Origin: an uncultured Methanosarcinales archaeon
GTDB taxonomy: Archaea; Nanobdellota; Nanobdellia; Woesearchaeales; CAYZNE01
Assembly (NCBI GenBank): GCA_964461035.1
Contig: CAYWRI010000001.1
Span: forward strand, 43,394 to 99,072
Direction: 5' to 3'
DNA: 55,679 nucleotides
Shown: one piece after another, positions 7,441-54,552 of the stretch
Layout of the letters: every line of letters begins with the position of its first letter
Position numbering within the stretch: the first letter of the stretch is position 1
Translations under genes and position numbers: made by a program
The notes under the pieces: generated by a model
Database searches by the model: none
The model's input: only the letters and a program-made list of their open reading frames with translations
What the model was told of the DNA's origin: nothing

Positions 7441-8589
7441 ATGTTTATGAGGAAAGAAATATTTATTCTTATGATTTTTGTAGTTTCTTGCAGTAGTGTG
7501 TTTGCATCTACAATTACTAGATATGGTTCTGATTTTACTATTGTTGAGAAGGAAATTTCATTTAAAGTAAATGATAGATTAGGTACTGAAAGATTAAGTT
7601 TTGACTATGAGTATGTGGGTTCTGGATTTAATAATTTGCCTTATGGGCAACAATTAAAAAATAAAGATGTTAAATTAGGATTTAACAACAAAGAATTAGA
7701 CGATACTGATAACTACTATTTTAATGCTCGTTATTATGATTATGACTCTGGTAAGTTTTTAGGTGTCGATCCAATTAATGATAATCCTGCTTATGCTTTT
7801 GTTTCCAATAACCCAATGAATTATATTGATCCAAGCGGACTTATTGAAAAACAACCAATTGATACGGGTGAAATTTTTAACAGGAATGGATTAGCTTATT
7901 TCATTGATTTGAAAGTTGATTCTATTGGAGAAGAATTCATTAATCACATGTCTGATGAAATTCTCACCATTATGAATGAAGAATACAAGTCTGAAATACC
8001 TCAGGAAAATAAACGTATCTTATATCTTGCCAAATATGTTGATGATACAATTTGGGATAGCACTAATTACGCTGAAGAGAGACAAAAATCTGGCCATTAT
8101 CTTGATCCTTACTCACCAATTAAATTTTTGAATCCTTTAGGATTAGGCAACTTTTTTAGTTTAATTCATTCTATTGAAAGAGACATTGTTGAGGTAGTAA
8201 ATGAAGGGGTTTGCGTTGAGAAATCTATATTAACAGTGCTGATTCTTGAAGACTTCATTGACAAGCAAGAACTATCCGATAAATATGGTGTTTACTACGA
8301 AACAGTCAGTGCTAAAACCAAGAGGTATTTTATTGACGAAAACTATGAAGAAAAGACTCTTAGAACAGAAGCGTTATTTGGTCATGCATATGTTGTGATT
8401 GAAGACTTTTCTTCAGGCAAGGAATATTTTTTGACAAAAGGGAAGATATATGACTCTTTTGAAGACTTTACAGAAGTTGTTTACATGGGAAACTATGGTC
8501 CTGTAGATGTAAAGAATGGTCACACAATTTATTATGAAAATTCTTATGAAAGAGGAGAAAAACAATATTTACTTCAATCAGAAGAATGA
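7441..8589 (+). CDS. mini-Rhs protein 1: signal peptide + Rhs-associated core + transglutaminase-like (Cys/His) C-terminal domain
   Basis: DRLG, LPYGQ, YYFNARYYDYDSGKFLGVDP and NNPMNYIDPSG Rhs-core motifs; C-terminus has GVCVEKSILTVLIL and GHAYVVIED. Confidence 0.85.
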   Translation: MFMRKEIFILMIFVVSCSSVFASTITRYGSDFTIVEKEISFKVNDRLGTERLSFDYEYVGSGFNNLPYGQQLKNKDVKLGFNNKELDDTDNYYFNARYYDYDSGKFLGVDPINDNPAYAFVSNNPMNYIDPSGLIEKQPIDTGEIFNRNGLAYFIDLKVDSIGEEFINHMSDEILTIMNEEYKSEIPQENKRILYLAKYVDDTIWDSTNYAEERQKSGHYLDPYSPIKFLNPLGLGNFFSLIHSIERDIVEVVNEGVCVEKSILTVLILEDFIDKQELSDKYGVYYETVSAKTKRYFIDENYEEKTLRTEALFGHAYVVIEDFSSGKEYFLTKGKIYDSFEDFTEVVYMGNYGPVDVKNGHTIYYENSYERGEKQYLLQSEE

Positions 8590-8628
8590 TTTTTAATTAA
8601 ACGAGTGATAAATAATAGTATATAACCT

Positions 8629-8660
8629 ATTAAAAAAAGATTCATAAAGAATATATTAAT
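8629..8660 (+). promoter_or_regulatory. BRE/TATA-like element nearly identical to the tRNA-Lys promoter
   Basis: ATTAAAAAAAGATTCATAAAGAATATATTAAT vs ATTAAAAAAGATTTATAAAGAATATATTAAT at 10105-10135. Confidence 0.5.
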
Positions 8661-8850
8661 CACTCAAATGAACTAATTGATGAAGAGAATTTCTTAACGC
8701 TAACTTACAGTAATAGCTTTAAATTATCTGAGCCTGGATTAGTTAGAGTACATCCAGAATAATCATTTAATAAGATAAATAATGTGAGTTAATTTTTAGA
8801 GAAACAATAGAAAATCTGAAAAAAATTTATAAAACGCCAAAACAAAAATT

Positions 8851-10041
8851 ATGGTTATGCGAAAAGAAATATTTATTCTTATGATTTTTGTAGTTTCTTG
8901 TAGTTCAGTATTTGCATCTACAATTACCAGATATGGTTCTGACTTTACAATTGTTGAGAATGAAATTTCATTTAAAGTAAATGATAGATTAGGTACTGAA
9001 TGATTAAGTTTTGAAGATGAGTATGTGGGTTCTGGATTTAATAATTTGCCTTATGGGCAACAATTAAAAAATAAAGATGTTAAATTAGGATTTAACAACA
9101 AAGAATTAGACGATACTGATAACTACTATTTTAATGCTCGTTATTATGATTATGACTCTGGTAAGTTTTTAGGTGTCGATCCAATTAATGATAATCCTGC
9201 TTATGCTTTTGTTTCCAATAACCCAATGAATTATATTGATCCAAGCGGAATGGACAATATATTGTACATCCACGCCAACTATGAAACAACAGATCATAAT
9301 GATGCATTTGCAGATGAAACAAAAGAAAGCTATGAATCAGAAGGTCATACAGTTACAGAAATAGTTATTGAAACTTCTGAACAATTTGAACAAGCACTAG
9401 AAACTGCATACAAACAATTTGAAAATACAGGAGAAAAATACGATTTTTTCATTTTGGGAGGACACGGAAATAAATATGAGATAAAGTTGTCTGATTATGA
9501 TGTAAATCATAACGGAAAAGAAGAGTTATCGTATTCAGATATGAAAAAATTAAATGTTGATAAAAAAGACAAATATTTCAACATGTTATCTACTAACGCA
9601 GAAGGGTGTTTACATAGTTGTTCAGGTGCAGAAACCACTATTGGAAAATCTTATGATCTAGGAACTGATGCTGGCAGTCATCCTCGACATTATCCTAATT
9701 CTAAAGCCCAAGAACTTTCTAATTTATTAAATATTCCTATCTATGCAATGATTGGTCATGGCAACATCTTATTTGATAAGAAAGCTTTAACTCCTATGAA
9801 AATTAATTGGAATATTGTTAAAATTGAACATAAAAACTTAGAAATTATACATGGATCAATAGTTTATGAAGAAAGAATCATAGATTATTCTGATAAAACT
9901 GTAATTCAAATAATTAGAAGCATGTATTTCTTGGACGAACAGATTGCTCAAAAAATTAACGACATAATTACGGGTGCAAAGAAAATAAGTGAAAAAAAAC
10001 GTGTTATTAATCCAAACTTGGTCGTTGTTTATCCAGAATAA
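8851..10041 (+). pseudogene. mini-Rhs protein 2 interrupted by an in-frame TGA at 9001-9003; caspase-like (HG...SC) C-terminal domain
   Basis: 5' part aligns with copy 1 at offset 1410; the AGA codon of copy 1 is TGA here; the frame continues through DPSG into FFILGGHG...LHSCSG. Confidence 0.8.
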
Positions 10042-10104
10042 AAAAATTAATTATATTATGGAATCCCAAAAGTATTAAACTATTTATATCTATATTTTAA
10101 ATAG

Positions 10105-10135
10105 ATTAAAAAAGATTTATAAAGAATATATTAAT
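10105..10135 (+). promoter_or_regulatory. BRE/TATA promoter of tRNA-Lys
   Basis: A-rich BRE followed by TTTATAAA about 40 nt upstream of the tRNA 5' end. Confidence 0.6.
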
Positions 10136-10162
10136 TCTTAAGAAGATAAAGACTTACTATGC

Positions 10163-10236
10163 GACCTCATGGCTCAGTCTGGTAGAGCAGCCGGCTCTTA
10201 ACCGGCAGGTCGGGGGTTCGAATCCCCTTGGGGTCA
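10163..10236 (+). tRNA. tRNA-Lys (CTT)
   Basis: Acceptor GACCTCA/TGGGGTC, anticodon arm GCCGG-CT-CTT-AA-CCGGC, T-loop TTCGAAT. Confidence 0.96.
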
Positions 10237-10247
10237 TCAATTTATTT

Positions 10248-10991
10248 TTATATATCAATATCTATTAAGTCGTAAGCTAATATGGTATTTTGAAAAAACT
10301 CTTTTGTTTGTTTAAGTCTCACTTCTTCAGATATTGGATAAAGATGAGTGAGAACAAGCTTTTTGACCTTTGCTTTTGTAGCAATTAGACCGCATTCTTT
10401 AGGAATAAGATGCGATGAGGACTTACGATTATTATCAAAAGAACATTCTAAAACTAAAACATCTGCATTTTTTGAAAAGTTAATTATGTCTTCATTATAG
10501 TACATATCTCCTGCAATTACTAATGTTTTATTTTTTTCTATAAATTTGAATGCAAGACTTTCTTCAGTATGTACTGTACTAAGTGTGAAAACTGAAAAGT
10601 TATCAAATACGAGTTCATCTTGATTAATCTCTTTAATATTTATTTCAAATTTTGGCGGATTTTTAGTAAATACGAGAGGTTCAATATAAGTAGTATATAA
10701 TTTTTTAAAACCTTTCGGCCCAATTATTTGCAATTCTTTAGTTTTATCAAGATGTGGATATTTTAAAGCCCATAAAATAACATACAATTCTGCAAAATGA
10801 TCAATATGAAAATGAGAAATAAAAATTATGTCTATATCTTGAATAGGAATTTTGGCTTGTGATAGTCTAACTAGAGTTCCGCTACCGCAGTCTACTAATA
10901 TTTGTTTATTTCCAATTCTAATATAATTTGAAGCTGAAACTCTGTCTTTTGAAACTTGACTTGTTCCTGTTCCTAATATTTTAAGATTCAT
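10248..10991 (-). CDS. MBL-fold metallo-hydrolase (RNase Z/BN-like)
   Basis: ILGTGTS, LVDCGSG, SHFHIDH, GDMYY, LECSF, SHL, LTHLYP motifs. Confidence 0.88.
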   Translation of the reverse strand: MNLKILGTGTSQVSKDRVSASNYIRIGNKQILVDCGSGTLVRLSQAKIPIQDIDIIFISHFHIDHFAELYVILWALKYPHLDKTKELQIIGPKGFKKLYTTYIEPLVFTKNPPKFEINIKEINQDELVFDNFSVFTLSTVHTEESLAFKFIEKNKTLVIAGDMYYNEDIINFSKNADVLVLECSFDNNRKSSSHLIPKECGLIATKAKVKKLVLTHLYPISEEVRLKQTKEFFQNTILAYDLIDIDI

Positions 10992-11069
10992 AAACTCATA
11001 TTTGTAAATTGATTATATAAATTTTTTGAAAAATTGGATTGATTCGAATGAATTCAACAATTAAAAGGG

Positions 11070-11636
11070 CTATTCTCCGAATACAATGGCTTCAAAAGTG
11101 TAAACTGAAGTTGAAGAAGAATCTTTCCAAGCATTAACATTAAGACTTGCTTTCTGACAAGTCATTTGAAGTGCTTTTAAAGGTGTAGCGTCCCATTCAG
11201 TAAAAACTTGGGGTAATAAAATCCCTGAATAATAATTAGGTCCTTCAATAAATAATCCGTGTTTTCCAATCATAATTTTTTTCACGTATTTTTCAGGTTC
11301 ACATTTCAACTTTTCAAGAGGTGTCAAAACAGATATTTCTAATGTTATAAATGGAATTTCATCTCGTTTTAGAGGAGAAAATCTAGGATCATTAAATGCT
11401 GCTAATCTCGCATTGTCCCTTATTGCTTGCCACAAAGGAGCAATTGGTAGTGTGTGACCTATGCAACCTCTTAATTCCTTATTCTTATGCAAAGTTACAA
11501 ACGCACCTTGTTTCAAACTAAATTTTTGAACTTTTTTCTTTAGAAACTCGTCTACATCTTCTTTATTAAACTCAGATTCAATAGAATTTCTTGCTAAATC
11601 CAATAATAATGTTTTATCTTCTTTTGATATCTCCAT
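11070..11636 (-). CDS. AMMECR1-domain protein (AmmeMemoRadiSam protein A family)
   Basis: GAFVTLH...LRGCIG...AAFNDPRF...EISVLTP...GKHGL...GILLPQV...CQKA. Confidence 0.92.
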   Translation of the reverse strand: MEISKEDKTLLLDLARNSIESEFNKEDVDEFLKKKVQKFSLKQGAFVTLHKNKELRGCIGHTLPIAPLWQAIRDNARLAAFNDPRFSPLKRDEIPFITLEISVLTPLEKLKCEPEKYVKKIMIGKHGLFIEGPNYYSGILLPQVFTEWDATPLKALQMTCQKASLNVNAWKDSSSTSVYTFEAIVFGE

Positions 11637-11668
11637 TTTTTAATATGCTCACCTAATTTATAATAAAC

Positions 11669-11735
11669 GCGCTCTTCAGTTACTCATTGTAATCATTTCC
11701 TTGCGGATCATCGGGTGTTCACTAAATCATGGCGC
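11669..11735 (-). ncRNA. putative box C/D sRNA (67 nt)
   Basis: GCGC-C-[ATGATTT]-12-nt guide-[ATGA]-TCC/GCAA/GGA-A-[ATGATTA]-10-nt guide-[CTGA]-AGA-GCGC; the internal motif forms a complete K-turn; TTTTTTAAAG TATA-like element 22-31 nt upstream. Confidence 0.7.
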
Positions 11736-11854
11736 AAATTACGATAATACTTTACACTTTAAAAAATTAGTGGGTAAATAGTTTACTTATGTTACTAACC
11801 GTAATTGTTGTCAAATCAACAACACATTTAAATGATTAAATTCAAGCAGATATT

Positions 11855-12574
11855 ATGACAATCAAAATAATAAAATATGGTGGTTCAATAGTTAATCCTG
11901 ATGGAAATTTTAATTCAAATTCTTTAACTCAATTAATTAATTTGATAAAAGAATTTTCAGAAGATAAATTCATATTTATAATAGGTGGTGGTAAAATGTC
12001 AAGAATATTACAAAATAATATTGATAAAACAATTTCTTCTTCAATAATTAAGGATTATGAAAATTATGCGAGAGATTGGTTGGGAATATCTGCTTCAAGA
12101 ATTAATGCAGAAATTGTAAGAAATAAAGTCAGTAAAGTTATTAAAGGAGTTCATTCTGAACTTCTATTAAACCCCGAAATAAGTTCTCTTCCAGATAATT
12201 CCAGAATCTTCTTTTCTGGCGGATGGAAACCAGGTTGGTCAACAGATTTTGTATCATTAAAATTTGCAGAATTTTTAAATGTAAATGAAGTCTATAAAGT
12301 TTCAGATTTTGTTCAAGTTTTGGATGTTTCTCCTGAAGAAATTGATAAAAATAATTTAGACAAATATTCTGCTCTTCCAAAAATATCTTGGGACAAGATG
12401 ATTGAAATTGTAGGAACTTCTTGGATTCCTGGAAGAAATGCACCGCTTGATCCTGAGGCCGCAAAATTAGGGAAAAAAATGTCTTTTAACGGATTTAAGC
12501 TTTTAATAGGTCAAATGCCTGAATTAATAAAAATGATTAAAAAACAAGATTTCATAGGAACAATTGTCGAATAA
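11855..12574 (+). CDS. pyrH: archaeal-type UMP kinase
   Basis: IIKYGGSI, IIGGGKMSR, DWLGISASRINA, GGWKPGWSTD, PLDPEAAK. Confidence 0.9.
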   Translation: MTIKIIKYGGSIVNPDGNFNSNSLTQLINLIKEFSEDKFIFIIGGGKMSRILQNNIDKTISSSIIKDYENYARDWLGISASRINAEIVRNKVSKVIKGVHSELLLNPEISSLPDNSRIFFSGGWKPGWSTDFVSLKFAEFLNVNEVYKVSDFVQVLDVSPEEIDKNNLDKYSALPKISWDKMIEIVGTSWIPGRNAPLDPEAAKLGKKMSFNGFKLLIGQMPELIKMIKKQDFIGTIVE

Positions 12575-12625
12575 AACGCGTTGAATTAAAAATATTTATA
12601 AACAACAAAGGTAAATAATTGAAGT

Positions 12626-12985: not shown

Positions 12986-13021
12986 TTTTCTATTCAATAA
13001 AATAAAAAAAGATAAAAGAAT

Positions 13022-13390: not shown

Positions 13391-13402
13391 TAGTTAATCA
13401 CC

Positions 13403-16012: not shown

Positions 16013-16090
16013 TTATATCACAATCTATGTAATGATTCTAAAATATATAAATCTTTGGTTTGCTTTTTTAAATTATCTAAGAATAAAAAA

Positions 16091-16173
16091 CGCCAAGGCC
16101 CAGATTCGAACTGGGAATAGCCTAAGCTACTGGATCTCAAGTCCAGCCGAGTACCGGATTGTCGCACCTTGGC
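16091..16173 (-). tRNA. tRNA-Ser (TGA)
   Basis: Acceptor GCCAAGG/CCTTGGC, G73, anticodon arm CTGGA-CT-TGA-GA-TCCAG, long variable arm, T arm CCCAG-TTCGAAT-CTGGG. Confidence 0.93.
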
Positions 16174-16175
16174 AA

Positions 16176-16298
16176 TGCGGATGAGGAGACTTGAACTCCC
16201 GACCTCCAGATGGCTCAGCACACGAATAATCATTGCCTTGCAGCTCATCACTCATGGATTTATGAGTCTGGCGCTCTAACCAACTAAACTACATCCGC
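16176..16298 (-). tRNA. tRNA-Met (CAT, probably elongator) with a 49-nt intron at 37/38 (intron 16212-16260)
   Basis: Acceptor GCGGATG/CATCCGC, CCAGA-CT-CAT-A|intron|A-TCTGG; central BHB helix C32-A35 pairs with the intron's 3' TGAG. Ile2 identity cannot be excluded from sequence alone. Confidence 0.9.
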
Positions 16299-24815: not shown

Positions 24816-25988
24816 TTATTCAAATCTTCTAGCTTCTGCTTCAAAAACATTCTTTTCTAAATAATTTTCACCAAAATCAAAATCTCCTGATAACTTATAC
24901 TCTATATGAAAAGGTGCTGCTTCTGCAATAAAGTTAGTTATTGTTTTTATTAACACGCCTGTAAAAACAGATACTTCTTGTTCTTTATAATCCTCTTTGG
25001 TCCATTTAGATAATCTTGGTTGTACAGATTGAGTAAAAAGAGTAGTACGTTCCTCAAATTGTAGCGTATGAATCCATTCATGGCGAAGAATAGAATTTTT
25101 ATCCTTATAACCATTAGTTGAGACAACTATTGAATTACCTGAAGAATCTCCTCCCCAAGAAGAATCATGAAAAATTAATGAACCTGTTTTAACACTATCT
25201 TTAAAAGAAAATTTCTGGCCAAGTATTATACGACCTGTAGTTACCAGTAGAGTAAGAGGAGAAGGAGTTAATTTTAATCCTTCAGATCCTACTTCTACAT
25301 ATGCTGGACCAATAAGAGTTCGATAGGAAGAAAACCAATTATCTCCTTTTATCGCATTGCCTTTTATTGAAGTACCCGCACTATGCATCAGTTTTGTGGG
25401 GTAGAATTGATTCTGGTTATGAATGAAAAACTCTTTAGATCCTGCTTCAATAGCGCCTCCAAGCAATCCTGCTGCAAATCCCTTCCAAAATCCGTTTCCT
25501 TCAAAATATGAATTAGTTCCAGTCCATATAGCGCTTGAAGTCATTGCAACCATAAAACTTTCAGCAGTATTTCCTACTCTTTCATCAGGATTATTACCAT
25601 CAGAATCAACATAATTCATTGGATTATTAGAAACATAGGAATAAGCATGATTGTCACGCACAGGATCAACTCCAAGGAACTTACCAGAATCATAGTCATA
25701 ATAACGAGCATTAAAATAATAATTATTTGTATTATCTAATTCTTTACCTGTAAAACTGAATTTAATATTATTATTTTTTAATTGTTGACCATAAGGTAAA
25801 ACATTCGATTCAGTAACAACATTCTCATCATCGAGAGTTAGTCTATCACTACCTAACCTATCAGTAACCTTAAAATTAATTTCATTATTAACAATCTCGA
25901 AATCAGAACCATAACGCGTAATTGTTGAAGCATTCACACTGTTTAAACAAAGTAAAAACAATAATAAAAATATGGTAAATTTATTCAT
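24816..25988 (-). CDS. mini-Rhs protein 3: signal peptide + Rhs core (DSDG) + Gly-rich hydrophobic segment + HExxH zincin-like C-terminus
   Basis: Rhs-core motifs as in copy 1; ILRHEWIHTLQ...FEAEARR. Confidence 0.85.
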   Translation of the reverse strand: MNKFTIFLLLFLLCLNSVNASTITRYGSDFEIVNNEINFKVTDRLGSDRLTLDDENVVTESNVLPYGQQLKNNNIKFSFTGKELDNTNNYYFNARYYDYDSGKFLGVDPVRDNHAYSYVSNNPMNYVDSDGNNPDERVGNTAESFMVAMTSSAIWTGTNSYFEGNGFWKGFAAGLLGGAIEAGSKEFFIHNQNQFYPTKLMHSAGTSIKGNAIKGDNWFSSYRTLIGPAYVEVGSEGLKLTPSPLTLLVTTGRIILGQKFSFKDSVKTGSLIFHDSSWGGDSSGNSIVVSTNGYKDKNSILRHEWIHTLQFEERTTLFTQSVQPRLSKWTKEDYKEQEVSVFTGVLIKTITNFIAEAAPFHIEYKLSGDFDFGENYLEKNVFEAEARRFE

Positions 25989-26094
25989 ATGTACAAAATA
26001 GAATTAAATCTTTAAAAATATTCTTGTAAAAAGAATTAAGAAAACAAGAATTAAAAAATAAGCACAGCATTGTAGTTAATAACTTCAAATCAAA

Positions 26095-27318
26095 TTAATT
26101 ATCATCCTTAGTTTCTGGTGAAACTTTAACAAGGTGATACGAATGCGTTTGAAAATTAGCAGTATTATCTAAAAGCTTAGTGGGATCAAAAACAACAGAA
26201 GACGGATCCTTTACATCTCTAATCTTAGCAACAATATTTTTAGACGAAACATATATATCCGGAGTAAGATGAAGATTAAGATACTCATCAAAAGAATAAC
26301 CAATACGTAAATATTCATTTTCATTTACTTTATAATAAACATATGAAACAAGAGTGTTTGGAGGATTTAGATAAGCATATTTTTTTTGCACATTTGTATA
26401 TTCAGCTATATCCTCTATAGGATCAAACGTAACAAGTCTATTATCATCAGGATCACAACTCTTAGGTATTAAAGTTTCCGCATCAATATTCATACTCCCT
26501 TCAATATCAATTGACCAAATATCCAAATTAAGCATATTCGCAAATGCCTGTGCATTAGAACAACCATCTTCTCTGGACGCCGCACCAGAGCAACTCTTTA
26601 AAATGCCTTCAGACCCACCTTTAAACATCTGCTGATACTCCGAACCCATATCCTCAATATTACTACCAAATAAATACATATCACCTAAAAGCATCATTCT
26701 TGGTTGACCATGAGCTCCAAATATAAAAAAATCATATTGTTCTCCCGTGGCTGAAAATTTCTCCAACGCCAAAGTAAAAGCCTCCTTAAACTCCGCAAGA
26801 TCATTTATAACATACTCATCAACAGTATGACCTTTAGACTCATATTTTTTACTAGTTTCAGACTTAAAAGCACCATTATAATCACCAGTCTCATAATTTG
26901 CATGTATATACAAAATATTCTCCAATCCTGAAGGATCAATATAATTCATAGGATTATTAGAAACATAAGCATAAGCATGATTGTCAGAGACAGGATCAAC
27001 TCCTAGGAACTTACCAGAATCATAGTCATAATAACGAGCATTAAAATAATAATTATTTGTATTGTCCAATTCTTTACCTGTAAAACTAAATTTAACATTA
27101 TTATTTTTTAATTGTTGACCATAAGGTAAAACATTCGATTCAGCAATAACATTTTCATTGTTAAGTGTTAGTCTATCACTACCCAACCTATCATTAATTT
27201 TATAAGAAATCTCATTACCAATAATTTTGAAATCAGAACCATAATGCGTAATTGTTGAAGCATTTACACTGCTTAAACAAAGTAAAAATAGTAATAAAAA
27301 TATGGTAAATTTATTCAT
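26095..27318 (-). CDS. mini-Rhs protein 4: signal peptide + Rhs core (DPSG) + caspase-like C-terminus homologous to that of copy 2
   Basis: LENILYIHANYET...FFIFGAHG...LKSCSG, matching copy 2. Confidence 0.85.
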   Translation of the reverse strand: MNKFTIFLLLFLLCLSSVNASTITHYGSDFKIIGNEISYKINDRLGSDRLTLNNENVIAESNVLPYGQQLKNNNVKFSFTGKELDNTNNYYFNARYYDYDSGKFLGVDPVSDNHAYAYVSNNPMNYIDPSGLENILYIHANYETGDYNGAFKSETSKKYESKGHTVDEYVINDLAEFKEAFTLALEKFSATGEQYDFFIFGAHGQPRMMLLGDMYLFGSNIEDMGSEYQQMFKGGSEGILKSCSGAASREDGCSNAQAFANMLNLDIWSIDIEGSMNIDAETLIPKSCDPDDNRLVTFDPIEDIAEYTNVQKKYAYLNPPNTLVSYVYYKVNENEYLRIGYSFDEYLNLHLTPDIYVSSKNIVAKIRDVKDPSSVVFDPTKLLDNTANFQTHSYHLVKVSPETKDDN

Positions 27319-27416
27319 ATACACAAAATGGAGTTAAATCTTTAAAAATATTTTTAAAAATTTAGAATCGAACAATAAGAATCTACGGAAGAGTATGAAA
27401 AGAATTTATAAATAAA

Positions 27417-44198: not shown

Positions 44199-46706
44199 AT
44201 GCGTCAAAAAAAGAGTTTTTTAAAGCAAAGTTTGAATATGATTTCAAGCACATTTAACAAAACAAAGGAATTTATTAAAAAAAGAAAAAAAGTTCTTATT
44301 ATAATCCTGGGTTCATTTATTTTATTTCTTATTCTTCTATTTATTCTAGGAATAAAAATTGGTTTTATGACTCAAACAGAATTAAATATCAGAATTAATC
44401 CGCTTCACGAAGTTATAAATGCTGAAGTAAACAAACCTGTTGAAGTCGAATTTAAAATAGAAAACAATAATTTTTGGATGTGCAACACACAATGCGAATT
44501 TACATTATACGATCCTTATACTCAAAAAATAATTCAACAAGAAAGTGAAGCTGTAAACTCAAATATTTTACTAAAAAAAACATATGTGATTAGTTCATCT
44601 GAAGCTGAGCGAGGTCAGAGATTATTTTATTTTGAAGCCAAATGTCGTAATATAAAATCAACACTTTGTCAAACAGAAGAAAAAGAATATTATTCTTCAT
44701 CTTTAATTACTGCTAATTATGAATATTCAAAAGAAACAAAAACAGAAATTGAAGCGCTTTTAACAGATTTAAACAAATTTATTTCAGGTTCTGAAAAATC
44801 TAATTCTCTTGCTAAAGATATAAATTTAATATTGAATAATATCAAAGGAAAAATTAATTACTCAACCGATATTTCTAATGAAGAAAAAATTATTTCTGAA
44901 AATCTTCAAAAAAATCAAATGATTCAAGACTTTTGGCAGAATAATTCTTATGATTCAATAAAAAATATTTTCAATACTGACAATACTTTAGAAATAACAA
45001 AGATATTTGAATCATTATCTATGAAAAAATCCCTGCTTCTTAGTAATATAGAAACTTATAATTTGCTAGTAGATAAAATGGATTTTCTTAATAATTTAGT
45101 AGATAAAGAAATTCTTAATGCAGAACAATTCTATAGATTATTTAATTTTGATGACAAAGTTGAAAATATAACGATTGTTAGGTTAAGATTGAATAATTTA
45201 AAATCTAATTTTTATAAAACAAATATTGAATCCATTCAAACATTATTAATTAATGCAGAATCTATTGAAACGTATGCAGTCAAAATTCTTAATCAATATA
45301 ACCAAGATTATGTTGAATATTTGACTGGATTAAAATTAGGAGAACATAAATTAATTCAAGAAAGATATAATTCTTTGCGTTTAGAAGCAAACATGTCTTT
45401 AGATTTAAATTATGAGAAAGACGAATGTGATGCAGTTGATTTAATCCTCAATAACTATATTACTACAAGAATTTTTGCAAATGAAAAAATAATTGAAAAT
45501 CTTGGTGTTGAATTTATTTGTGAAAACAATTGTTCAGAAGAAATATTAAATAATAACTCTATGAAAATACTTTCAGGTCTTAGAAATAGTATTAAGCTTG
45601 AAGATTATAATTTTGAATTTAATTCAACTGAAAATAAATATACTTTTAATAATACAGAAACAATTTATGATTCAAATGGATTAAGTTTTATTGATTATAT
45701 AAAAATGGTAAAAGTATATGAATCAGAGTTCAGTGATTTAAATTTCTTTTTGATGAATCTTTGTTTTCTTGATAATATACGAAGAATATCACAGACGAAA
45801 ATGAACAAAATAAATAACACATTTTCTTTTGATAATTATTTGAATTTACTGGCCAAATTAGAATATCCTGAAGAGAAATGTTGTATATTTAATTCTTGTC
45901 AAAAATGTGTGGATAAATCTGATAAATATCCTGTGATTTTGTTACACGGTCATAATTTTAATAAATATAACCCCATACAAAGTATTGTGAATTCTATGAC
46001 ATCTATTCAAAGAAAACTAAGTGTTGATGCACATTTTATTAATGGTGCCGAAGTCGATCTTGCAGATGTAAATGAATCTGAAATGTGGTCAAAAATGAAT
46101 GTGCCTCTTGCAATTAGAGCAAGTTATTATTATATATCTTATTATGATTTTGAAATATATTCAGTTTCAACCATGTCTGAAGAAAGTATAGAGAATTATG
46201 CAATAAGATTAAGAGAAATAATAAATCTTGTAAAACAAAAAACTGGTGCAGAAAAAGTAGATATTATTGCTCATTCAATGGGTGGACTTGTTGCTAGGTA
46301 TGAATTATTTTTATTTGATGATGAAGATGTTAATAAACTAATTCTAATTGGAACACCAAATAAAGGAATCATTGGAAAAGTTGAAGAACTATGTCCAACA
46401 TTTGGTGCTAAGAAAGAATGTGCAGATATGAATATTAATAGTATAATTCTAAAAAAACTTAATTCTGTAAGAAATATCCCTGAAAATACTAACGTGTTCA
46501 ACATATATGGAACAGGTTGCGATATGGATGGCGAAGATGGAGATGGAATTGTAATTGCTAAAAATGCACACTTAGATTTTGCAACAAATATAGAAATAAA
46601 AGGTCAATGCAATGATTTTCTTAATTTAGAAATGCATAATAATTTAATTAGGGTTAATGAATATCCTGAAGTATATGATGCAGTCATTGATATATTAGAG
46701 AATTAA
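44199..46706 (+). CDS. large membrane-anchored protein with a C-terminal alpha/beta hydrolase (lipase/PGAP1-like) domain
   Basis: N-terminal TM helix; PVILLHG, IAHSMGGL, IGTPNKG, GDGIV, MHNNL (Ser-Asp-His triad). Confidence 0.82.
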   Translation: MRQKKSFLKQSLNMISSTFNKTKEFIKKRKKVLIIILGSFILFLILLFILGIKIGFMTQTELNIRINPLHEVINAEVNKPVEVEFKIENNNFWMCNTQCEFTLYDPYTQKIIQQESEAVNSNILLKKTYVISSSEAERGQRLFYFEAKCRNIKSTLCQTEEKEYYSSSLITANYEYSKETKTEIEALLTDLNKFISGSEKSNSLAKDINLILNNIKGKINYSTDISNEEKIISENLQKNQMIQDFWQNNSYDSIKNIFNTDNTLEITKIFESLSMKKSLLLSNIETYNLLVDKMDFLNNLVDKEILNAEQFYRLFNFDDKVENITIVRLRLNNLKSNFYKTNIESIQTLLINAESIETYAVKILNQYNQDYVEYLTGLKLGEHKLIQERYNSLRLEANMSLDLNYEKDECDAVDLILNNYITTRIFANEKIIENLGVEFICENNCSEEILNNNSMKILSGLRNSIKLEDYNFEFNSTENKYTFNNTETIYDSNGLSFIDYIKMVKVYESEFSDLNFFLMNLCFLDNIRRISQTKMNKINNTFSFDNYLNLLAKLEYPEEKCCIFNSCQKCVDKSDKYPVILLHGHNFNKYNPIQSIVNSMTSIQRKLSVDAHFINGAEVDLADVNESEMWSKMNVPLAIRASYYYISYYDFEIYSVSTMSEESIENYAIRLREIINLVKQKTGAEKVDIIAHSMGGLVARYELFLFDDEDVNKLILIGTPNKGIIGKVEELCPTFGAKKECADMNINSIILKKLNSVRNIPENTNVFNIYGTGCDMDGEDGDGIVIAKNAHLDFATNIEIKGQCNDFLNLEMHNNLIRVNEYPEVYDAVIDILEN

Positions 46707-46734: not shown

Positions 46735-49281
46735 TTAAGTTTTCTCTTTTAAAGACAAGGATGATTTTTTATCTTCAATACATTTCATTAACTCTTCTTC
46801 AAGTAATTGAGTGTCTGACGTTATTTTGATACTAGCTATACAAGTATTTGTTTTTTTAACTAGTTCTTCATCATACCTTCCACCACTATTACAAGGAAAT
46901 TCGTCTATTATCTCAGTTATGTATTGAAGAATAAAGCTAGAATCAAAAGATTCAATAACTTCATTACAATCCACATCTGCAGAAATTAATTGCCAATCTT
47001 CAAACGCAATCATTTCTGCTGAATATCTTAAGACCAAAGCAACATCGTATGAATCAATAACTCCATTACCATCAACATCACCTAATGGGTGAGTGTTTGC
47101 ACAAGTTCCATCTAATTGACAATAAGTTTCTTCTGAACAACCACATTGCTGACAATTATTAATTAATTCGCCTTCAACACAATAGAACGGCTGTTCGTCA
47201 GAACAAGAATCATCCATGGTTCCATCATCACAAGTAATCCAAACTTCATTGCAATATAAATAATTTTCATTATACGCTGGCCACCCATCTGCGCAAGAAC
47301 TTACTTCACCGAAATTATTTCCATAACCTGAAGTACTTTCTGAACCCGCACACAAAACATCTCCCATAAAAGTGTCTGAGTCACAAATTCTATTATTTGT
47401 AATTATTGTATTATGGGAAAGTAAAATAGATAATCCTGCATCAAACATTAGATATCCAAAAGAATAAATAATATTGTTATTTATTAAAGTTCCATCATTT
47501 GTAATATGCAGTTTAATTCCCCCTTTATTGCTATTATTGATATTGTTGTTTATTAAGGAAAAATTGTCTGAGTTTTCTATGAGTATTCCTTCTAAACCAT
47601 TATTATTGATATTGTTGTTTATTAAGGAAAAATTGTCTGAGTTTTCTATGAGTATTCCTTCTAAAGAACTATTGGTTAGATTATTATCAATTATGAAAAA
47701 ATGGGTTGAATCCTTTATGATGATACCCTCCTTAGTAAAACAAATACTATTATTAACTATAGATATATTGTGTGAGTTCCATATGTTAATTTTCGATTTA
47801 TGGTTCATAATATTGTTTTTTATTTCAACATTGTTAGTTTCCGAACCTAAATCAAAAGACTGTCCATTATGACTAAAAGAATTATTAGTAAGTAATAAAT
47901 TTTCAGAATAAGAAAAATCAAATCCTGCATTAAAACCTGCAAGAATACAATTTTTTATAGTTGCATTATTAACGTGCCATAACTCCAAATAAGTTCCCGA
48001 ACTTGGTTTTGGAGCAACAATTTCTGCTTGTTCTAGCGCATCACAATCTATTAACAAATTATTCTCATATATGATTTGAATTGTGGGTTCATCGTAATTA
48101 TACACCCAAATTTCGGTTTCGACAACATTATCTTTACTAAATCCTTGAGTTTCTTGATTTAAATCAGAAACTATAATTTCAAATTTTAGAATAGTATATT
48201 GTAATTTACTAATAGTCCAAGTAAAATCTGTTACTTCTATAAAATTTTGATTAGGAACTGCATTAACAAATCGTGTTTCTTCTAATATGTTATCAATATA
48301 AAAATTAACCTGTAATTCTGAAAGTTCTAAATTATTATATCCTGAAAAATTTATTGTTAAATTAAAAATTTTTTCTAGATTTTCAGAGTCAAATATGATA
48401 TTAGAACCATAGTAACCTTGAAATACATTGAAACTTGATTCAAGTTTATCAATCCAAACATTTTTTAATAGATTTACTGAAAAGTCATCGTCATTTAAAT
48501 CCTTTATAAGATTACCTTCAGAATCCTCAACACAATTATTACTACAATTAGTAGTATCTTCAGATTTACCCCAATAACAATAATCATCATTATCATTATC
48601 AGAACAATAAACAGAAATATCATTTGTTGGATAGGGATATTTAGAGAAACCAAACGCACTTAATTCATTTAAAATAACATATCCTTCTTCCCCCCAGTCT
48701 TCTCCCCACGAATTTTTAATAATAAGATTATCATCTTCAGTATATCCTGTAAAAACCATTGCATGTCCCCAAGACCCCACCACTACTCCTCCAGGACCAT
48801 ATTTAAATAAACTTGATTTCGTTGAATAGGGAGAGAGATATTCTGTTGTTAAGTCGCCAATATTCCACGCATTTTCAGGATTTTCACAAATATTACAAGC
48901 AATATTTTCTGCCTGATAAGGGAAGCAATCTTCTAAAACCAATGAACCGTCTAAAAGATATTCATATGCATTACTTACTCCGCCACCAGCACAATCTCCA
49001 CAATCCTCGCAACACTCACCATCATTTGAAACTAATTGTTGTTCAGATAAATCAACATCTAACTGTTGATTGTAAAATAAATTTATTTGACCTTCAATTG
49101 ATCCAACAGCAGAAAAAGCCCAGCAACTTCCACATTGTTCCTGATTTTTAACAGGGGTCATCCAATTTTGACCCATGTAATCACGGTAATCTAAAGAATC
49201 TGGATAATTCCCTAGAGATTCTGCATTCACTAAAGATATTAACAGTAAAGATAATAAGATTAATAAAAATATTTTTTTCAT
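46735..49281 (-). CDS. secreted papain-family (C1A) cysteine protease with Ig-like domain, parallel beta-helix repeats, Cys-rich region and C-terminal dockerin + tail
   Basis: Signal peptide; DYR...WMTPVKNQEQCGSCWAFS, DLSEQQLV, GHAMVFTGY, KNSWG; IENSDNFSLINNNI repeats; GDVDGNGVIDSYD / ADVDCNEVIESFD. Confidence 0.9.
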   Translation of the reverse strand: MKKIFLLILLSLLLISLVNAESLGNYPDSLDYRDYMGQNWMTPVKNQEQCGSCWAFSAVGSIEGQINLFYNQQLDVDLSEQQLVSNDGECCEDCGDCAGGGVSNAYEYLLDGSLVLEDCFPYQAENIACNICENPENAWNIGDLTTEYLSPYSTKSSLFKYGPGGVVVGSWGHAMVFTGYTEDDNLIIKNSWGEDWGEEGYVILNELSAFGFSKYPYPTNDISVYCSDNDNDDYCYWGKSEDTTNCSNNCVEDSEGNLIKDLNDDDFSVNLLKNVWIDKLESSFNVFQGYYGSNIIFDSENLEKIFNLTINFSGYNNLELSELQVNFYIDNILEETRFVNAVPNQNFIEVTDFTWTISKLQYTILKFEIIVSDLNQETQGFSKDNVVETEIWVYNYDEPTIQIIYENNLLIDCDALEQAEIVAPKPSSGTYLELWHVNNATIKNCILAGFNAGFDFSYSENLLLTNNSFSHNGQSFDLGSETNNVEIKNNIMNHKSKINIWNSHNISIVNNSICFTKEGIIIKDSTHFFIIDNNLTNSSLEGILIENSDNFSLINNNINNNGLEGILIENSDNFSLINNNINNSNKGGIKLHITNDGTLINNNIIYSFGYLMFDAGLSILLSHNTIITNNRICDSDTFMGDVLCAGSESTSGYGNNFGEVSSCADGWPAYNENYLYCNEVWITCDDGTMDDSCSDEQPFYCVEGELINNCQQCGCSEETYCQLDGTCANTHPLGDVDGNGVIDSYDVALVLRYSAEMIAFEDWQLISADVDCNEVIESFDSSFILQYITEIIDEFPCNSGGRYDEELVKKTNTCIASIKITSDTQLLEEELMKCIEDKKSSLSLKEKT
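47532..47665. repeat. exact 65-bp tandem duplication (69-bp period) adding one beta-helix turn
   Basis: 47532-47596 is identical to 47601-47665; the protein has LEGILIENSDNFSLINNNINN twice. Confidence 0.9.
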
Positions 49282-50162: not shown

Positions 50163-50250
50163 TTTGTTTACCTCATACCAATTATAAAACTAGAAATTTA
50201 TAAAAGTTTACATAAAAAAACAATTTATTGATTATAAGACAATAAATTAA

Positions 50251-51273
50251 TCAATAATCAAAAATGCTTTTTTGCTTATTTAATTCTGCTGTTTTTTCTA
50301 GCTTTTCAAATAATCTGGCCATTCTTTCTTCAGAAAAATCGTGTTTGTCAACAAGAATAGCTCTTATTTTTTCTTTGTCAAAAGGTTTCCATTCTAAAGA
50401 ATAATCATCAATTACTGCTACATTGATTAGAGCATCATAAACATCTTTCCAATCAACAGTAAAATGATTAAACCACTTTACTTCTTCAAATAATTCTTCA
50501 GGTTTATCATATTTTTTTACTAAAGAAATTGCGGTTTTAGGACCAATACCTTTTATTCCACCAACATTATAATCAGTTCCTACAAGCATTGCTAATAATA
50601 TTAATTTTTTTCTATCAATTTGAAGATGATTAAGGGTCTCACTTAATTCAATTATTTCTGGATAAACTTTTTTGTAAGTAGCACCCATCTTTCTTTTTCC
50701 TGCAATATTAAGATTTCTTACAACTCTTGTTGCACCAAATAAAAGTGAGTCTGCATCTTGACTTACTATTGCATAAGCATCACCATTCGCAACAATTCTT
50801 GCAGCTTGTGCTTCTCCTTCACTTGGCGCTTGAACAATCGGAAGACCTATTGCATCAATTAATACTTTAGCTTCTTCGAGAAGATCAGGAGTTAAACGAG
50901 TTGTTCTTGAAGCGTATTTTTTCATGTCTGCAATATTTTCTTTAGCTTTAGCTGTTTCGTATTTTTCTTGAGCTGAAATTTTTACTTCTTTTCTTTTTTG
51001 CAATTCTTGTTTTTTAAGATCAGGAACTTTACCATCAAATACAAATATTATTTTTAAATTATTTTGAAGAAAATTTGTTAACCTTGATATTAAACCAATA
51101 AGATGACTTGTAACATTTCCATTTTTATCTGTTAATAAAGAACCATCCTGTTGTCTGATAGTTGTTAAAAATTGATACAACATATTTTGTCCATCGATAA
51201 CTAATGTTTTACCTGACAGTTCCTTAATACTTGTCTCTTTAATTTTTAAAAGTGATGTTATTGCTGTTCCCAT
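50251..51273 (-). CDS. fen: flap endonuclease 1
   Basis: MGTAI, IDGQNMLYQFLTTIRQQDG, FVFDGK, APSEGEAQ, SQDADSLLFG, GTDYN..GIKGIGPKTA, QKSIFDY PIP box. Confidence 0.97.
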   Translation of the reverse strand: MGTAITSLLKIKETSIKELSGKTLVIDGQNMLYQFLTTIRQQDGSLLTDKNGNVTSHLIGLISRLTNFLQNNLKIIFVFDGKVPDLKKQELQKRKEVKISAQEKYETAKAKENIADMKKYASRTTRLTPDLLEEAKVLIDAIGLPIVQAPSEGEAQAARIVANGDAYAIVSQDADSLLFGATRVVRNLNIAGKRKMGATYKKVYPEIIELSETLNHLQIDRKKLILLAMLVGTDYNVGGIKGIGPKTAISLVKKYDKPEELFEEVKWFNHFTVDWKDVYDALINVAVIDDYSLEWKPFDKEKIRAILVDKHDFSEERMARLFEKLEKTAELNKQKSIFDY

Positions 51274-51277
51274 TTTA

Positions 51278-52513
51278 TTATTTTCCAAAATTTTCTACAA
51301 TCATCACATTATGGAATAATGTGTTTGTTTTTTGTTTTGTTTTTTTGCTTAGTTCTCCTGATGTAATGAATGCGACAGGAAGATGTTTTGATTGTCCTAT
51401 TACTATTGCGGTGCTTATATCTGAATCATTACACCTTTTTTTATTTTTGAATTTAGCAAAAAATCTTGAAAAGCCAATTGTGGTTTTTACTTTTATTACC
51501 AGATCATATTCTTTTCCTTTTCGAACTAAAGATGCACTTTCTAAAACTATATTTTTATCTTCAAGAGCTCTTTTTACTTCAATAAAGGTAGTATCTACTT
51601 TTAATTTATCATCTATATTTATTTCTGCTTCAAGTACATCCTGTGATTCTTTTGGTTTTGTAATATTTTCTTTTGGTTTAACCGTAGTTATGTTTTTTAA
51701 TAATTCTTTTCTAGAAGATTCATCTTTTTTATCTGAGACTTTAATAGTTTTACTTTGAGCAGATTTTGTTAAAGTTTCTTCTTTTACAGAAGTTGTTGAT
51801 TCAGGCTTTGATGATTGAGTTATTTTTTTTGATTCAACTTCTGATTCTTTTTTCTTTACAACATCCTGTTTTTGTTCTGATAAATTAACTTGAGCAGGTT
51901 CTTCAAGATTTTTAAGTGCAGGATTTAATATTTCTCTTATTCTTTGTTTAGCTTCTTCCTCTTTAATTAAATAATAAACCCAGAATATTTCTGATTCATC
52001 ATCAGAATGATTTACTTTTATAGGTATTGCAAAATCTTTTATTTTTCTTATTGATGCCCTAACAAAAAGTGTTTGGTCATAATCTCTTAAAACTTTTTTC
52101 TCTTTAAGAAGATGTACTGTTCCTTGATCTTTTTCATTTAAATATTGAGTAAGATATTCTAATTTTGCGTTTTGTTCAGGAAAATAATAAAAAACACTTG
52201 AACCTAATTGCACAGATGTTACCTTAACAAGTTTTTTATTTACAAATTCAGATAAATATGCAGATATTATTACAGAATCAGCATGAAGTTCCCTTTTTAA
52301 CTGATTAATTGTTATTGGACCTTTTTGTTTGACAATTTCCAAAACTTTATCTTGATTAACATTTTTTAAGAATATATTTGGTTTTGAAGTAGAATTGTGA
52401 GATTTTGCATTTGAATTTTGAGAATTTGTATTATTATTACTTTTTTCTGTAAGATTTCGAGCATTTATAATACTTTCACCCTTATTTATTAGTATTCTGC
52501 CATGATTTTCCAT
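51278..52513 (-). CDS. hypothetical protein: N-terminal winged-helix-like domain, low-complexity linker, C-terminal alpha/beta domain
   Basis: VLEIVKQKGPITINQLKREL...SAYLSEFVNKKLV; likely ATG at 52513 (the track ORF's extension overlaps the divergent gene's promoter region). Confidence 0.65.
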   Translation of the reverse strand: MENHGRILINKGESIINARNLTEKSNNNTNSQNSNAKSHNSTSKPNIFLKNVNQDKVLEIVKQKGPITINQLKRELHADSVIISAYLSEFVNKKLVKVTSVQLGSSVFYYFPEQNAKLEYLTQYLNEKDQGTVHLLKEKKVLRDYDQTLFVRASIRKIKDFAIPIKVNHSDDESEIFWVYYLIKEEEAKQRIREILNPALKNLEEPAQVNLSEQKQDVVKKKESEVESKKITQSSKPESTTSVKEETLTKSAQSKTIKVSDKKDESSRKELLKNITTVKPKENITKPKESQDVLEAEINIDDKLKVDTTFIEVKRALEDKNIVLESASLVRKGKEYDLVIKVKTTIGFSRFFAKFKNKKRCNDSDISTAIVIGQSKHLPVAFITSGELSKKTKQKTNTLFHNVMIVENFGK

Positions 52514-52651
52514 TATAAACTCTGACAAGATTAGCATATATTTAAAAGTAGTGTTTTTCATTATTATATGCATCACAACATATTTACATATGCAAATATT
52601 TATAAAGTTAGGATTTTTAGTAATCATTATCTTAAAGTGGGGTGTATTAAC

Positions 52652-53251
52652 ATGGTAAATACTGACTTTAACCTTGATATGGATAATTATATTAGAAAAA
52701 TAAAAAAGAAAAGAACAGATCCTATAGATTATGATCATGGTGAAGCCAAAGGAAAAACTGTTTTATCAAGCGAGAGCATTGATCAGTTTAGTGATAAAGA
52801 AATTATTATTGAATCTCAGGAAGATAATAAATTTAAACGATTTATATTATCAATATTCAGTCGACCTAAAAATACTGATGAAGATGAATTTGAATGTGTT
52901 GTTGAAGAAGAAATTGATGGAAAACCTGTAGAAAATATGACTGAGCAAGATGTTGAAGAACTTGAGGACGATATTGAAGAATTAGAAGTAGAAACAGAGG
53001 GATTTTTTCACAAATTATTAAAGTTGTTCAGTTCAAGAAGAAATGATGAATACATAGATGATGAAGAGTTTTATGAATCCGATACTGATAATGAACCTGA
53101 AATGCTTAGTGATACAAAAAATGCATTTAAAGCAATTAATAACTGGCTTAATAAATTATCTCCTGAGGAAAAAGAGAAATTTAAAGATTCAATGGACTTT
53201 AAAATATACAAAGCATTTCTTGAAAAATACAATCTCATAAAAAAAGATTGA
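52652..53251 (+). CDS. highly acidic hypothetical protein
   Basis: ATG at 52652 after a GGGGTG SD-like motif; Asp/Glu-rich. Confidence 0.6.
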   Translation: MVNTDFNLDMDNYIRKIKKKRTDPIDYDHGEAKGKTVLSSESIDQFSDKEIIIESQEDNKFKRFILSIFSRPKNTDEDEFECVVEEEIDGKPVENMTEQDVEELEDDIEELEVETEGFFHKLLKLFSSRRNDEYIDDEEFYESDTDNEPEMLSDTKNAFKAINNWLNKLSPEEKEKFKDSMDFKIYKAFLEKYNLIKKD

Positions 53252-53364
53252 ATTATTTTTTTTAATTTCTTATTTTATTATTTAAAATAAACAATTCTAA
53301 TAATAATTAATGATTTTAATTAATTTATATTAGAAACAAAAGCATACCTGAAAAACTAATCGCT

Positions 53365-54552
53365 TTACTCATCAATATCTTCTAAATTCAAATCAGTTGT
53401 TTGAATTGTAGAATCAGGAAATATTGGCTCATACAAAATAAAATCAAAAGAGTCAGAAAATTTATCATAGTTTCTAGGAGTTCTAGCATAAATTGAATAA
53501 TAGTCATCATCAAAATCTGAATATTTTAGAAAAATATCATAATAAAATCTTTCAGGCATGCCTTTTATTCTTCTACCAATATTTTCCGAAGCTATTGCAA
53601 CAGATTCACCGTAGGTTAATCTATTCGTTTTATCGGGAGATAACAATAAACCTCTCACATGACCTAATTCATGAATTAAAGCAATAGCGGGGTCACTAAA
53701 CGAAATTTCTTGCCCCCACTTGCCAAGATTTAAAACAGAATTATCAATAGACGTAGATTCTTGAATAACTAAATGATTCTTACCTATAAAAAATCCTGCA
53801 GGATTTAAACTTCTCATATAAACAATATTAACTTCTTCTGAATGTTCAATAACATCATTAATTATTCTAAATAAACTCCTCTTATCACTATTTGTTCCAT
53901 CGTAAACCTCTTTTGAAGTAATATATCCAAAATCATCAGCATAAAATAAATCATCCTCAAAAAAAGAATTTAAGTTATCAACAACATTAACAAGAGTATC
54001 ATCAAAATTTAAAACTTCACGATTAGCATCTTCACCCAAAACATAAGTTGAAATATCAACAATATTAAGAAGAGTATCTTCAAGATAAACATTCTCATCA
54101 TCAATATAAGTTGAAATATCCATACATGCCTCAGAAACAGGAACCACTTTAAGTCGCATACCATCAGGATCAATCATATTCATAGGATTATTGGAAACAT
54201 AAGAATAAGCATGATTATTACTCACAGGATCAACTCCAAGGAACTTACTAGAATCAAAATCATAATAGCGTGCATTAAAATAATAATTATTACTTGCATC
54301 TAATTCCTTACCCGTAAAACCAAACTTAACATTACTATTTTTTAATTGTTGACCATACGGTAAATTATTTGATTCAGCAACAACATTCTCATCGTCAAGA
54401 GTTAATCTATCACTACCCAATCTATCATTAATTTTAAAAGAAATCTCATTACCAACAATTTTAAAATCAGAACCATAACGCGTAATTGTTGAAGTAGCTA
54501 CACTGCTTAAACAAAATAAAAATAGTAATAAAAATATGATAAATTTATTCAT
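53365..54552 (-). CDS. mini-Rhs protein 5: signal peptide + Rhs core (DPDG) + HExGH zincin-like C-terminus
   Basis: Rhs-core motifs; DPAIALIHELGHV...GESVAIASENIGRRIKGMPERFYY. Confidence 0.85.
   Translation of the reverse strand: MNKFIIFLLLFLFCLSSVATSTITRYGSDFKIVGNEISFKINDRLGSDRLTLDDENVVAESNNLPYGQQLKNSNVKFGFTGKELDASNNYYFNARYYDFDSSKFLGVDPVSNNHAYSYVSNNPMNMIDPDGMRLKVVPVSEACMDISTYIDDENVYLEDTLLNIVDISTYVLGEDANREVLNFDDTLVNVVDNLNSFFEDDLFYADDFGYITSKEVYDGTNSDKRSLFRIINDVIEHSEEVNIVYMRSLNPAGFFIGKNHLVIQESTSIDNSVLNLGKWGQEISFSDPAIALIHELGHVRGLLLSPDKTNRLTYGESVAIASENIGRRIKGMPERFYYDIFLKYSDFDDDYYSIYARTPRNYDKFSDSFDFILYEPIFPDSTIQTTDLNLEDIDE

Follow-up and report, generated by a model that had tools for sequence, protein, structure and literature searches.

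Exported mini-Rhs proteins of an archaeon: Rhs cage tips with a predicted self-cleavage site and variable payloads

The mini-Rhs genes and their conserved module

The analysis of a 55,679-nt stretch of contig CAYWRI010000001.1 (positions 43,394 to 99,072; referred to below as the window) concerned five paralogous genes, here called mini-Rhs. An earlier note, made from the sequence of this DNA, had presented them as secreted proteins of one common architecture. All five open reading frames (ORFs) are indeed present, and their products of 382-407 residues are composed of the same three parts: a signal peptide, a conserved module and a C-terminal domain referred to as the payload. Copy 1 (7441..8589, plus strand) is an ORF of 382 residues, in which the signal peptide occupies residues 1-22 (7441-7506), the module residues 23-134 (7507-7842), terminating in IDPSGL, and the payload residues 135-382 (7843-8586). 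Copy 2 (8851..10041, plus strand) is disrupted; its payload (9253-10038) and that of copy 4 are homologs. The remaining three are located in the minus strand. Copy 3 (24816..25988, 390 residues) has its signal peptide at 25988-25929, its module at 25928-25593 and its payload at 25592-24819; the module terminates in VDSDGN, with Ser in place of Pro, so that the motif is DSDG and not DPxG. In copy 4 (26095..27318, 407 residues) the corresponding parts are at 27258-26923 for the module, again terminating in IDPSGL, 27318-27259 for the signal peptide and 26922-26098 for the payload. Copy 5 (53365..54552, 395 residues) is composed of a signal peptide (54552-54493), a module terminating in IDPDGM (54492-54157) and a payload (54156-53368). 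Alignment of the five proteins revealed about 70 invariant positions in residues 1-133, beyond which they could not be aligned.

The count of five stands for the ORFs, with one correction that the earlier note had missed. Copy 2 contains an in-frame TGA at 9001..9003 (plus strand), at the site of an invariant Arg encoded by CGA in copy 1, and downstream of it an intact ORF of 338 residues starts from the GTG at 9025. Recoding of UGA was considered and rejected, because TGA serves as the ordinary stop codon of 7 out of 48 ORFs in the window. Judged from its sequence, copy 2 is either a pseudogene created by a nonsense mutation or the product of a sequencing error.

Sequence reading and a hydropathy scan of the N-termini identified an n-region with K/R, a hydrophobic core of 12-15 residues and a cleavage site of the V-x-A type, the features expected of Sec signal peptides. 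The view that the genes are complete and signal-bearing rather than debris was borne out, with a ratio of nonsynonymous to synonymous substitution rates (dN/dS) of 0.21-0.31 for the module, which on these values is under purifying selection.

The module was scanned with the Rhs-associated core model TIGR03696. All five copies matched at residues ~65-132 with E-values of 1e-15 to 1e-16 and scores of 55.7-60.8 bits, well above the curated cutoff of 32.5 bits: 58 bits for copy 1 (residues 67-134), 57.2 for copy 2, 55.7 for copy 3, 60.8 for copy 4 and 59.2 for copy 5. This upheld the original assignment of the block to the Rhs-associated core and extended it, since the conserved part also includes two preceding YD-type hairpins. 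These hairpins, about 45 residues, are all that lies ahead of the core. A Pfam scan of the five copies detected neither RHS_repeat nor any other Pfam domain, and none of them contains a YD-repeat beta-cocoon of at least ~600 residues or a delivery domain (PAAR, VgrG-linked, type VII secretion or TcB-binding); a signal peptide alone precedes the module.

Positions 31-132 of the block profile align with the final ~110 residues of the TccC3, TccC2, YenC2 and RHS2 cages; the profile also aligns with mosquito SGS1. Cage chains that are already cleaved in the solved structures (6h6g_A, 4o9x_A, 4igl_B and 6l7i_G) terminate exactly at block position 132. In the alignment with TccC3, the Asp of SSDP and the Asp of DPDGL, which are 23 residues apart, match D108 (in GVDP) and D128 (in DPxG) in copy 5 numbering. 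These two positions also fit the residues mutated in PDB entries 6h6f (TcC-D651A) and 8uxt (D1369N and D1391N). We take the equivalent pair, D651/D674 of TccC3, to be the catalytic pair established for Tc and Rhs toxins. Residues R95, D108, P123, D128 and G131 are invariant in 150 out of 150 of the best cluster representatives found in the family search described below. Because of the alignment to solved cages, the block can be identified as the final two YD-type hairpins of a cage followed by a plug with an aspartyl self-cleavage site. The cut is predicted after DPxG-[L/M/N], i.e. after residue 132 in copies 3-5 and 134 in copies 1 and 2, and the conserved residues suggest that mini-Rhs proteins are capable of autocleavage. 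The catalytic Asp pair and the DPxG junction of the earlier note were thus found intact; copy 3, with DSDG, also retains the pair.

Structure prediction was less informative. AlphaFold2 gave an unusable model of full-length copy 5 (predicted local distance difference test, pLDDT, of 43). For the module alone, with 41 diverse sequences, mean pLDDT was 66 and the predicted template modelling (TM) score was 0.33, with no confident global fold; beta-hairpins were predicted at residues 24-60 and 90-107 with pLDDT of ~70-84, and the active-site segment had low values. When this model was submitted to Foldseek, the top 27 matches were all Rhs, Tc or teneurin cages, with TM scores of ~0.3. These matches agree with the cage homology and would be compatible, though weakly, with a part that folds only in the presence of a partner.

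A polymorphic family in low-GC archaea

An exhaustive hidden Markov model search across 1.84 billion cluster representatives resulted in 32,617 matches, 922 of them below 1e-10. Family statistics were calculated for the best 150 of the 32,617 matched representatives. Their median length is 396 residues, the block ends at median residue 154, and 135 of the 150 have an N-terminal hydrophobic segment. The part that remains after the block has an interquartile range of 225-262 residues and a maximum of 366. DPxG is present in 143 out of the 148 representatives with a detectable motif. Signal peptide plus core without YD repeats is thus a recurrent arrangement, found in at least 135 sequence clusters. 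Much less was recovered by two other searches: a word-index protein search with the N-terminal 132 residues gave one match, which was bacterial, and a scan of a genome collection matched a single locus in Christensenellaceae, also bacterial.

Examination of 80 metagenomic loci showed that they split cleanly. The best ~30 encode signal-bearing proteins of 350-540 residues in DNA of 27-39% GC (most 27-34%); the weaker matches belong to classical Rhs proteins of 1,000-2,200 residues or to signal-less orphans in higher-GC bacteria. The low-GC contigs carry genes for aEF1A, aEF2, TBP, MCM helicase with an intein, thermosome and aIF2-gamma, as well as a wyosine-formation radical-SAM protein (Taw1/Tyw1-type), ELP3, RtcB, STT3/AglB and RpoN. 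Markers such as aEF1A, TBP and thermosome identify these mini-Rhs contigs as archaeal. The MCM gene of one of them (L035, 11897-15304, minus strand) is split by an intein with a LAGLIDADG endonuclease. The densest array seen was on a 3.5-kb contig of 30% GC (L024), where four tandem mini-Rhs genes at 3-3556 are separated by gaps of ~10-40 nt. Three family members have a Por_Secre_tail, the C-terminal sorting domain of bacterial type IX secretion, which is unexpected if the family is wholly archaeal.

The C-termini are as variable as had been claimed: 149 payloads fell into 111 unrelated BLAST groups, of which 91 were singletons. Between paralogs in the window, DNA identity is 85-100% up to codon ~130-134 and then drops to the background level of ~50% within one 30-nt window, and this boundary coincides exactly with the cleavage motif. 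Polymorphic toxins have this layout, in which a hypervariable C-terminus with a sharp boundary follows a conserved N-terminal part. Copy 2 provides direct evidence of cassette exchange at the junction, since its module is of the copy 1 type (95% DNA identity) and its payload of the copy 4 type (36% amino-acid identity). Overall, the data firmly support a large family of archaeal effector precursors that are exported and polymorphic; what they conserve is an Rhs cage tip, its self-cleavage site intact.

Short Rhs-core ORFs lacking signal peptides were found by the same search in higher-GC bacterial contigs, which speaks for an origin of the mini-Rhs genes as pieces of full-length YD-repeat Rhs genes, generated by assembly breaks, frameshifts or wrong gene calls. 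Such an origin had been named beforehand as the result that would overturn the description, and it was not found. All five genes lie inside a 55-kb contig between unrelated flanking genes, with no upstream YD-coding frame; the signal peptide begins at the first Met; copy 4 is identical on three other independent assemblies; and RHS_repeat was matched in only 1 of 117 scanned family members. This explanation was rejected as effectively refuted.

Pfam and NCBIfam scans gave no match for any of the five window payloads. The payload of copy 1 is a singleton in the clustering, with no relative among the 150 representatives. That of copy 3 belongs to a type common to P0010 and contains a zincin-like HEWIH motif. 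The homologous payloads of copies 2 and 4 (an alpha/beta domain in copy 4) have an Asp, a His-Gly pair and a Cys (D64, H71, G72 and C111) invariant in a 7-member alignment. A PDB sequence search with these payloads produced only sub-threshold matches, to caspase-3/6/7 (E 0.45) and DUF4347 (E 1.1), and when a profile of the copy 4 payload was used in a word-index search of proteins, only family members were matched. The copy 5 payload, with a gluzincin-like HELGH...E...N..R pattern, has H162, E163, H166, E184, N192 and R195 invariant in a 5-member alignment and no match in PDB or Pfam. The terms zincin-like and Cys/His-hydrolase-like thus describe motifs, since Pfam and NCBIfam gave no match and the PDB searches only sub-threshold hints. 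Payload domains recognizable in relatives are LysM, NlpC/P60-like or TIGR02594-like, pesticin-lysozyme, beta-lactamase-like, isochorismatase and C39 peptidase. The peptidoglycan-type domains among them indicate that at least part of the repertoire probably targets bacterial cell walls.

No credible co-directional ORF resembling an immunity gene was found downstream of any window copy, and classical toxin-immunity pairs were rejected for these genes on that ground. Most archaeal relatives likewise lack such ORFs, in contrast to the low-GC bacterial Rhs loci of this data set, where ORFs of 100-290 residues are tightly coupled downstream. Among archaeal-type loci, an immunity-like array downstream was seen only on the contig of P0038 (JGI 3300072015), where the mini-Rhs gene is followed by three overlapping co-directional genes for 151, 147 and 135 residues.

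As had been stated for each gene, every copy has its own TATA-like upstream region. The boxes are TTTATAAA at 7417..7424 (plus strand), 24 nt upstream of the copy 1 ATG, and at 8826-8833 (plus strand), 25 nt upstream of that of copy 2; on the minus strand they are TTTTTAAA at 26011..26018 for copy 3, 27341-27348 for copy 4 and 54575-54582 for copy 5, each 30 nt upstream of the ATG. This spacing suits archaeal transcripts with short leaders. The similarity noted between the upstream regions of copies 3-5 was also found and amounts to 70-90% identity across the final ~45 nt. TATA-like octamers occur in this DNA at a background of 1.3 boxes per kb per strand, and the five boxes count as approximately two independent events, because the copies are paralogs with paralogous upstream ~45 nt.

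The genes could also be regarded as silent orphan cassettes, a reservoir of alternative toxin ends that would come into use only once recombined into an expression site, as in the rhs loci of Enterobacteria. Like the orphan (core-extension) cassettes of those loci, the window genes start within or near the Rhs core, carry alternative toxin domains and share a recombination junction, with the break of identity at its classical position; moreover, one copy is disrupted. Enterobacterial orphans, however, have no start or export signal of their own, trail a main rhs gene and are accompanied by immunity genes. The window genes are full ORFs with ATG starts, signal peptides and promoter-like boxes, have no immunity partner and are scattered among housekeeping genes, none trailing a main rhs gene. 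The dN/dS values of 0.21-0.31, the recurrence of the complete architecture in the clusters counted above and the absence of a core to recombine with in the cage genes described below make silent cassettes very improbable.

The window itself has a GC content of ~28% and contains genes for Spt5 (NGN+KOW), FtsZ, FKBP26, a PurO-type IMP cyclohydrolase and a FEN1/XPG nuclease. At 16176-16298 (minus strand) a 123-nt tRNA was detected by Rfam with the whole model covered and was missed by ARAGORN; it adjoins a tRNA-Ser at 16090-16174 (minus strand) and is probably an archaeal tRNA containing an intron. These neighbours, the apparent intron and the low GC content identify the window as archaeal; the DPANN-like host proposed earlier is plausible. 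Three other window genes encode large, putatively secreted proteins: one with FG-GAP repeats and a dockerin (160-1587, plus strand), a lipase/PGAP1-like alpha/beta hydrolase of 835 residues (44199-46706, plus strand) and a papain-family C1 protease with NosD/beta-helix and dockerin (46735-49281, minus strand). Hydrolases with dockerins point to an enzyme scaffold on the cell surface of this small low-GC archaeon. Two long ORFs without a Pfam match, 51278-52738 (minus strand) and 52568-53251 (plus strand), lie immediately downstream of copy 5 and overlap on opposite strands by ~170 nt; one of them is probably mis-called at its 5' end.

Separate cage genes in relatives and a possible split Rhs

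The earlier note had described the whole cage as missing. This holds for the five polypeptides and for the 55-kb window; however, core-less cages are encoded upstream of mini genes at three related loci. At L014, a signal-bearing protein of 1784 residues carries a TcB/SpvB-like motif at its N-terminus, together with RHS repeats (Pfam E 4.7e-19) and a C-type lectin domain; its C-terminus reads ...TTYYFYGLGINPLIEH followed by a Cys-rich tail, without a core, and a signal-bearing mini gene begins 11 nt after it. The same order of cage and mini gene is found at L030, with a gap of 6 nt and two more mini genes nearby. On the 116-kb archaeal contig L089, two core-less cages are encoded along with four mini ORFs; LysM-type hydrolase payloads are found in two of these minis. 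All four cages are signal-bearing YD-repeat proteins of 1095-2047 residues, each followed by a same-strand mini gene after 6-154 nt.

Analysis with NCBIfam models demonstrated that the two halves are complementary. Of the three cages scanned, from L014, L030 and L089, the latter two match TIGR01643 (YD repeats) and the central part of NF041261, the RHS element model, and none matches TIGR03696; the minis beside them score 70-77 bits on that model. Five close homologs of the L014 cage were retrieved, and each shares its contig with a mini gene; L088 and L090, where the cage lies near the mini gene, are among these contigs. At no archaeal-type locus did a cage bear its own core, and no complete archaeal Rhs was seen. 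Two loci with classical TcB/TcC-like pairs (L038 and L052) served as positive controls for a two-gene cage. Fission of a full Rhs as the origin of the mini-Rhs family is firmly supported. The term shell-less, used for these genes in the earlier note, therefore holds for the genes, but probably not for the lineage. A similar arrangement was observed on a contig of 43% GC that is probably bacterial (L070, 1543-11014): a core-less YD protein of 2625 residues with an Ig-like tail is followed after 14 nt by a signal-bearing mini-Rhs of 353 residues and then by a membrane protein of 169 residues, a possible immunity protein. The split arrangement may thus extend beyond archaea.

Core-less cages directly upstream of minis in related archaea make a split Rhs likelier than a cage-free system. 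We propose, with a probability of about 0.45, that the five genes encode Sec-exported, interchangeable plug-and-payload subunits of a split Rhs whose cage is supplied in trans. The exported module would dock onto the open end of a separately exported cage, with the payload inside. Asp108 and Asp128 would then cut after DPxG-[L/M] and free the payload within the cage, and the cage, which in relatives has lectin or carbohydrate-binding domains, would carry it to a non-self target. Dispersed mini genes with their own promoters would let one cage hold different payloads, much as orphan TcC genes do for Tc toxins, and recombination at the DPxG junction would bring in new ones. Immunity genes would not be needed if the payloads (putative proteases in the window, peptidoglycan hydrolases in relatives) act on structures that the producer lacks or never exposes.

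The observations on the mini-Rhs proteins can also be explained without any cage, as the earlier note had envisaged. The tip would then fold alone after Sec export and act as a self-cleaving pro-domain that frees an enzyme, and the cage-adjacent pairs seen elsewhere would represent an ancestral state from which free minis escaped. This autonomous pro-effector would agree with the absence of a cage from the window and from the vicinity of most mini genes, with the promoter-like box and signal peptide of each copy and with the location of all catalytic residues inside the module. The recognizable payloads of relatives are hydrolases or binding modules that act extracellularly, and a lack of immunity genes fits enzymes acting outside the producer. 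On the other hand, the two pre-core hairpins are conserved, although they have no known role except as cage wall, and the module was not confidently predicted as a stand-alone domain. The narrow size range of the payloads would be unexplained without a container, whereas sizes within the range of caged TcC payloads are expected if a payload must fit a cage. Finally, the core-less cages would be functionless unless plugged by minis. All four points favour the split Rhs; an autonomous pro-effector, its main rival, appears to us somewhat less likely.

Several observations weigh against the split Rhs as well. A tblastn search with the L014 cage against the 55-kb window with all five copies gave no match, and Pfam analysis of large ORFs detected no cage there either. 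Of the 12 unbiased low-GC loci for which 12 kb or more of sequence was available, just 2 have a cage. The subclade closest to the window genes (the window, L005 and L007-L010), in which the signal peptide is joined directly to the module, has no cage in ~90 kb. Some payloads of relatives, those with LysM and NlpC/P60-type hydrolases, could work as free secreted enzymes, and the weak prediction of the module may merely mirror a shallow alignment. To our knowledge, no experiment has shown a cage and its plug to assemble extracellularly once both have been exported by Sec. A more specific version is only slightly less probable in our view: a generic Sec-exported core-less cage would be closed and loaded outside the cell by any of several interchangeable plug-and-payload proteins of ~400 residues, from dispersed genes with promoters of their own, and would serve small-genome archaea as a modular, immunity-free weapon against bacteria or hosts.

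Relation to known systems and significance

The mini-Rhs proteins share with classical Rhs and WapA proteins the TIGR03696 core, the aspartyl pair, DPxG followed by hypervariable C-termini and recombination at the junction; a Sec signal peptide is also found in WapA-type members. They differ in their archaeal host and in their size of ~400 rather than 1,000-2,200 residues; the polypeptide does not include a cage, delivery domains such as PAAR or VgrG are lacking, and no immunity gene follows. Another parallel is the BC cocoon of Tc toxins, a two-polypeptide cage (TcB and TcC) with the core and cleavage site on the payload subunit and a similar range of payload sizes: 97.9% of TcC payloads have 201-400 residues (PMC7861908). 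Several interchangeable TcC subunits are encoded per genome, some of them far from the partner gene (PMC7861908). Unlike TcC, which provides roughly half of the cage, the mini subunit would provide only about two hairpins and the plug, and Sec signals on both partners imply assembly outside the cell. A TcA-type translocator was not noticed in the Pfam tables of the loci, although no search aimed at TcA was made. Self-releasing pre-toxin modules of Sec-exported polymorphic toxins, such as HINT, resemble the mini-Rhs proteins in having a conserved trafficking or processing N-terminus and a variable toxin freed by proteolysis (PMC3482391), but the Rhs aspartyl site has another fold and chemistry, and the classical systems have immunity genes.

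Polymorphic toxins were reported to be rare in archaea (Zhang et al. 2012, PMC3482391). Full-text literature searches, which did not cover the archaeal survey of Makarova et al. 2019, found no paper that ties DPANN or other archaea to shell-less or split Rhs. The Rhs core, its self-cleavage and polymorphic C-termini are known; what is new is a separate exported protein consisting of plug and payload in archaea.

A cage of the Rhs, Tc or teneurin kind is regarded as one folding unit with its own toxin inside. Plug and payload exported as a separate protein would show either that cages accept loading in trans or that the Rhs core, as a portable self-cleaving module, functions cage-free. Both outcomes would alter the view of Rhs encapsulation and offer a small, engineerable release module. 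With at least 135 clusters in low-GC archaea, few assignable payloads and no immunity genes, the family represents a sizeable unexplored set of archaeal effectors, and the peptidoglycan-directed domains of some relatives are relevant to the open issue of whether archaea antagonize bacteria (PMC12352652).

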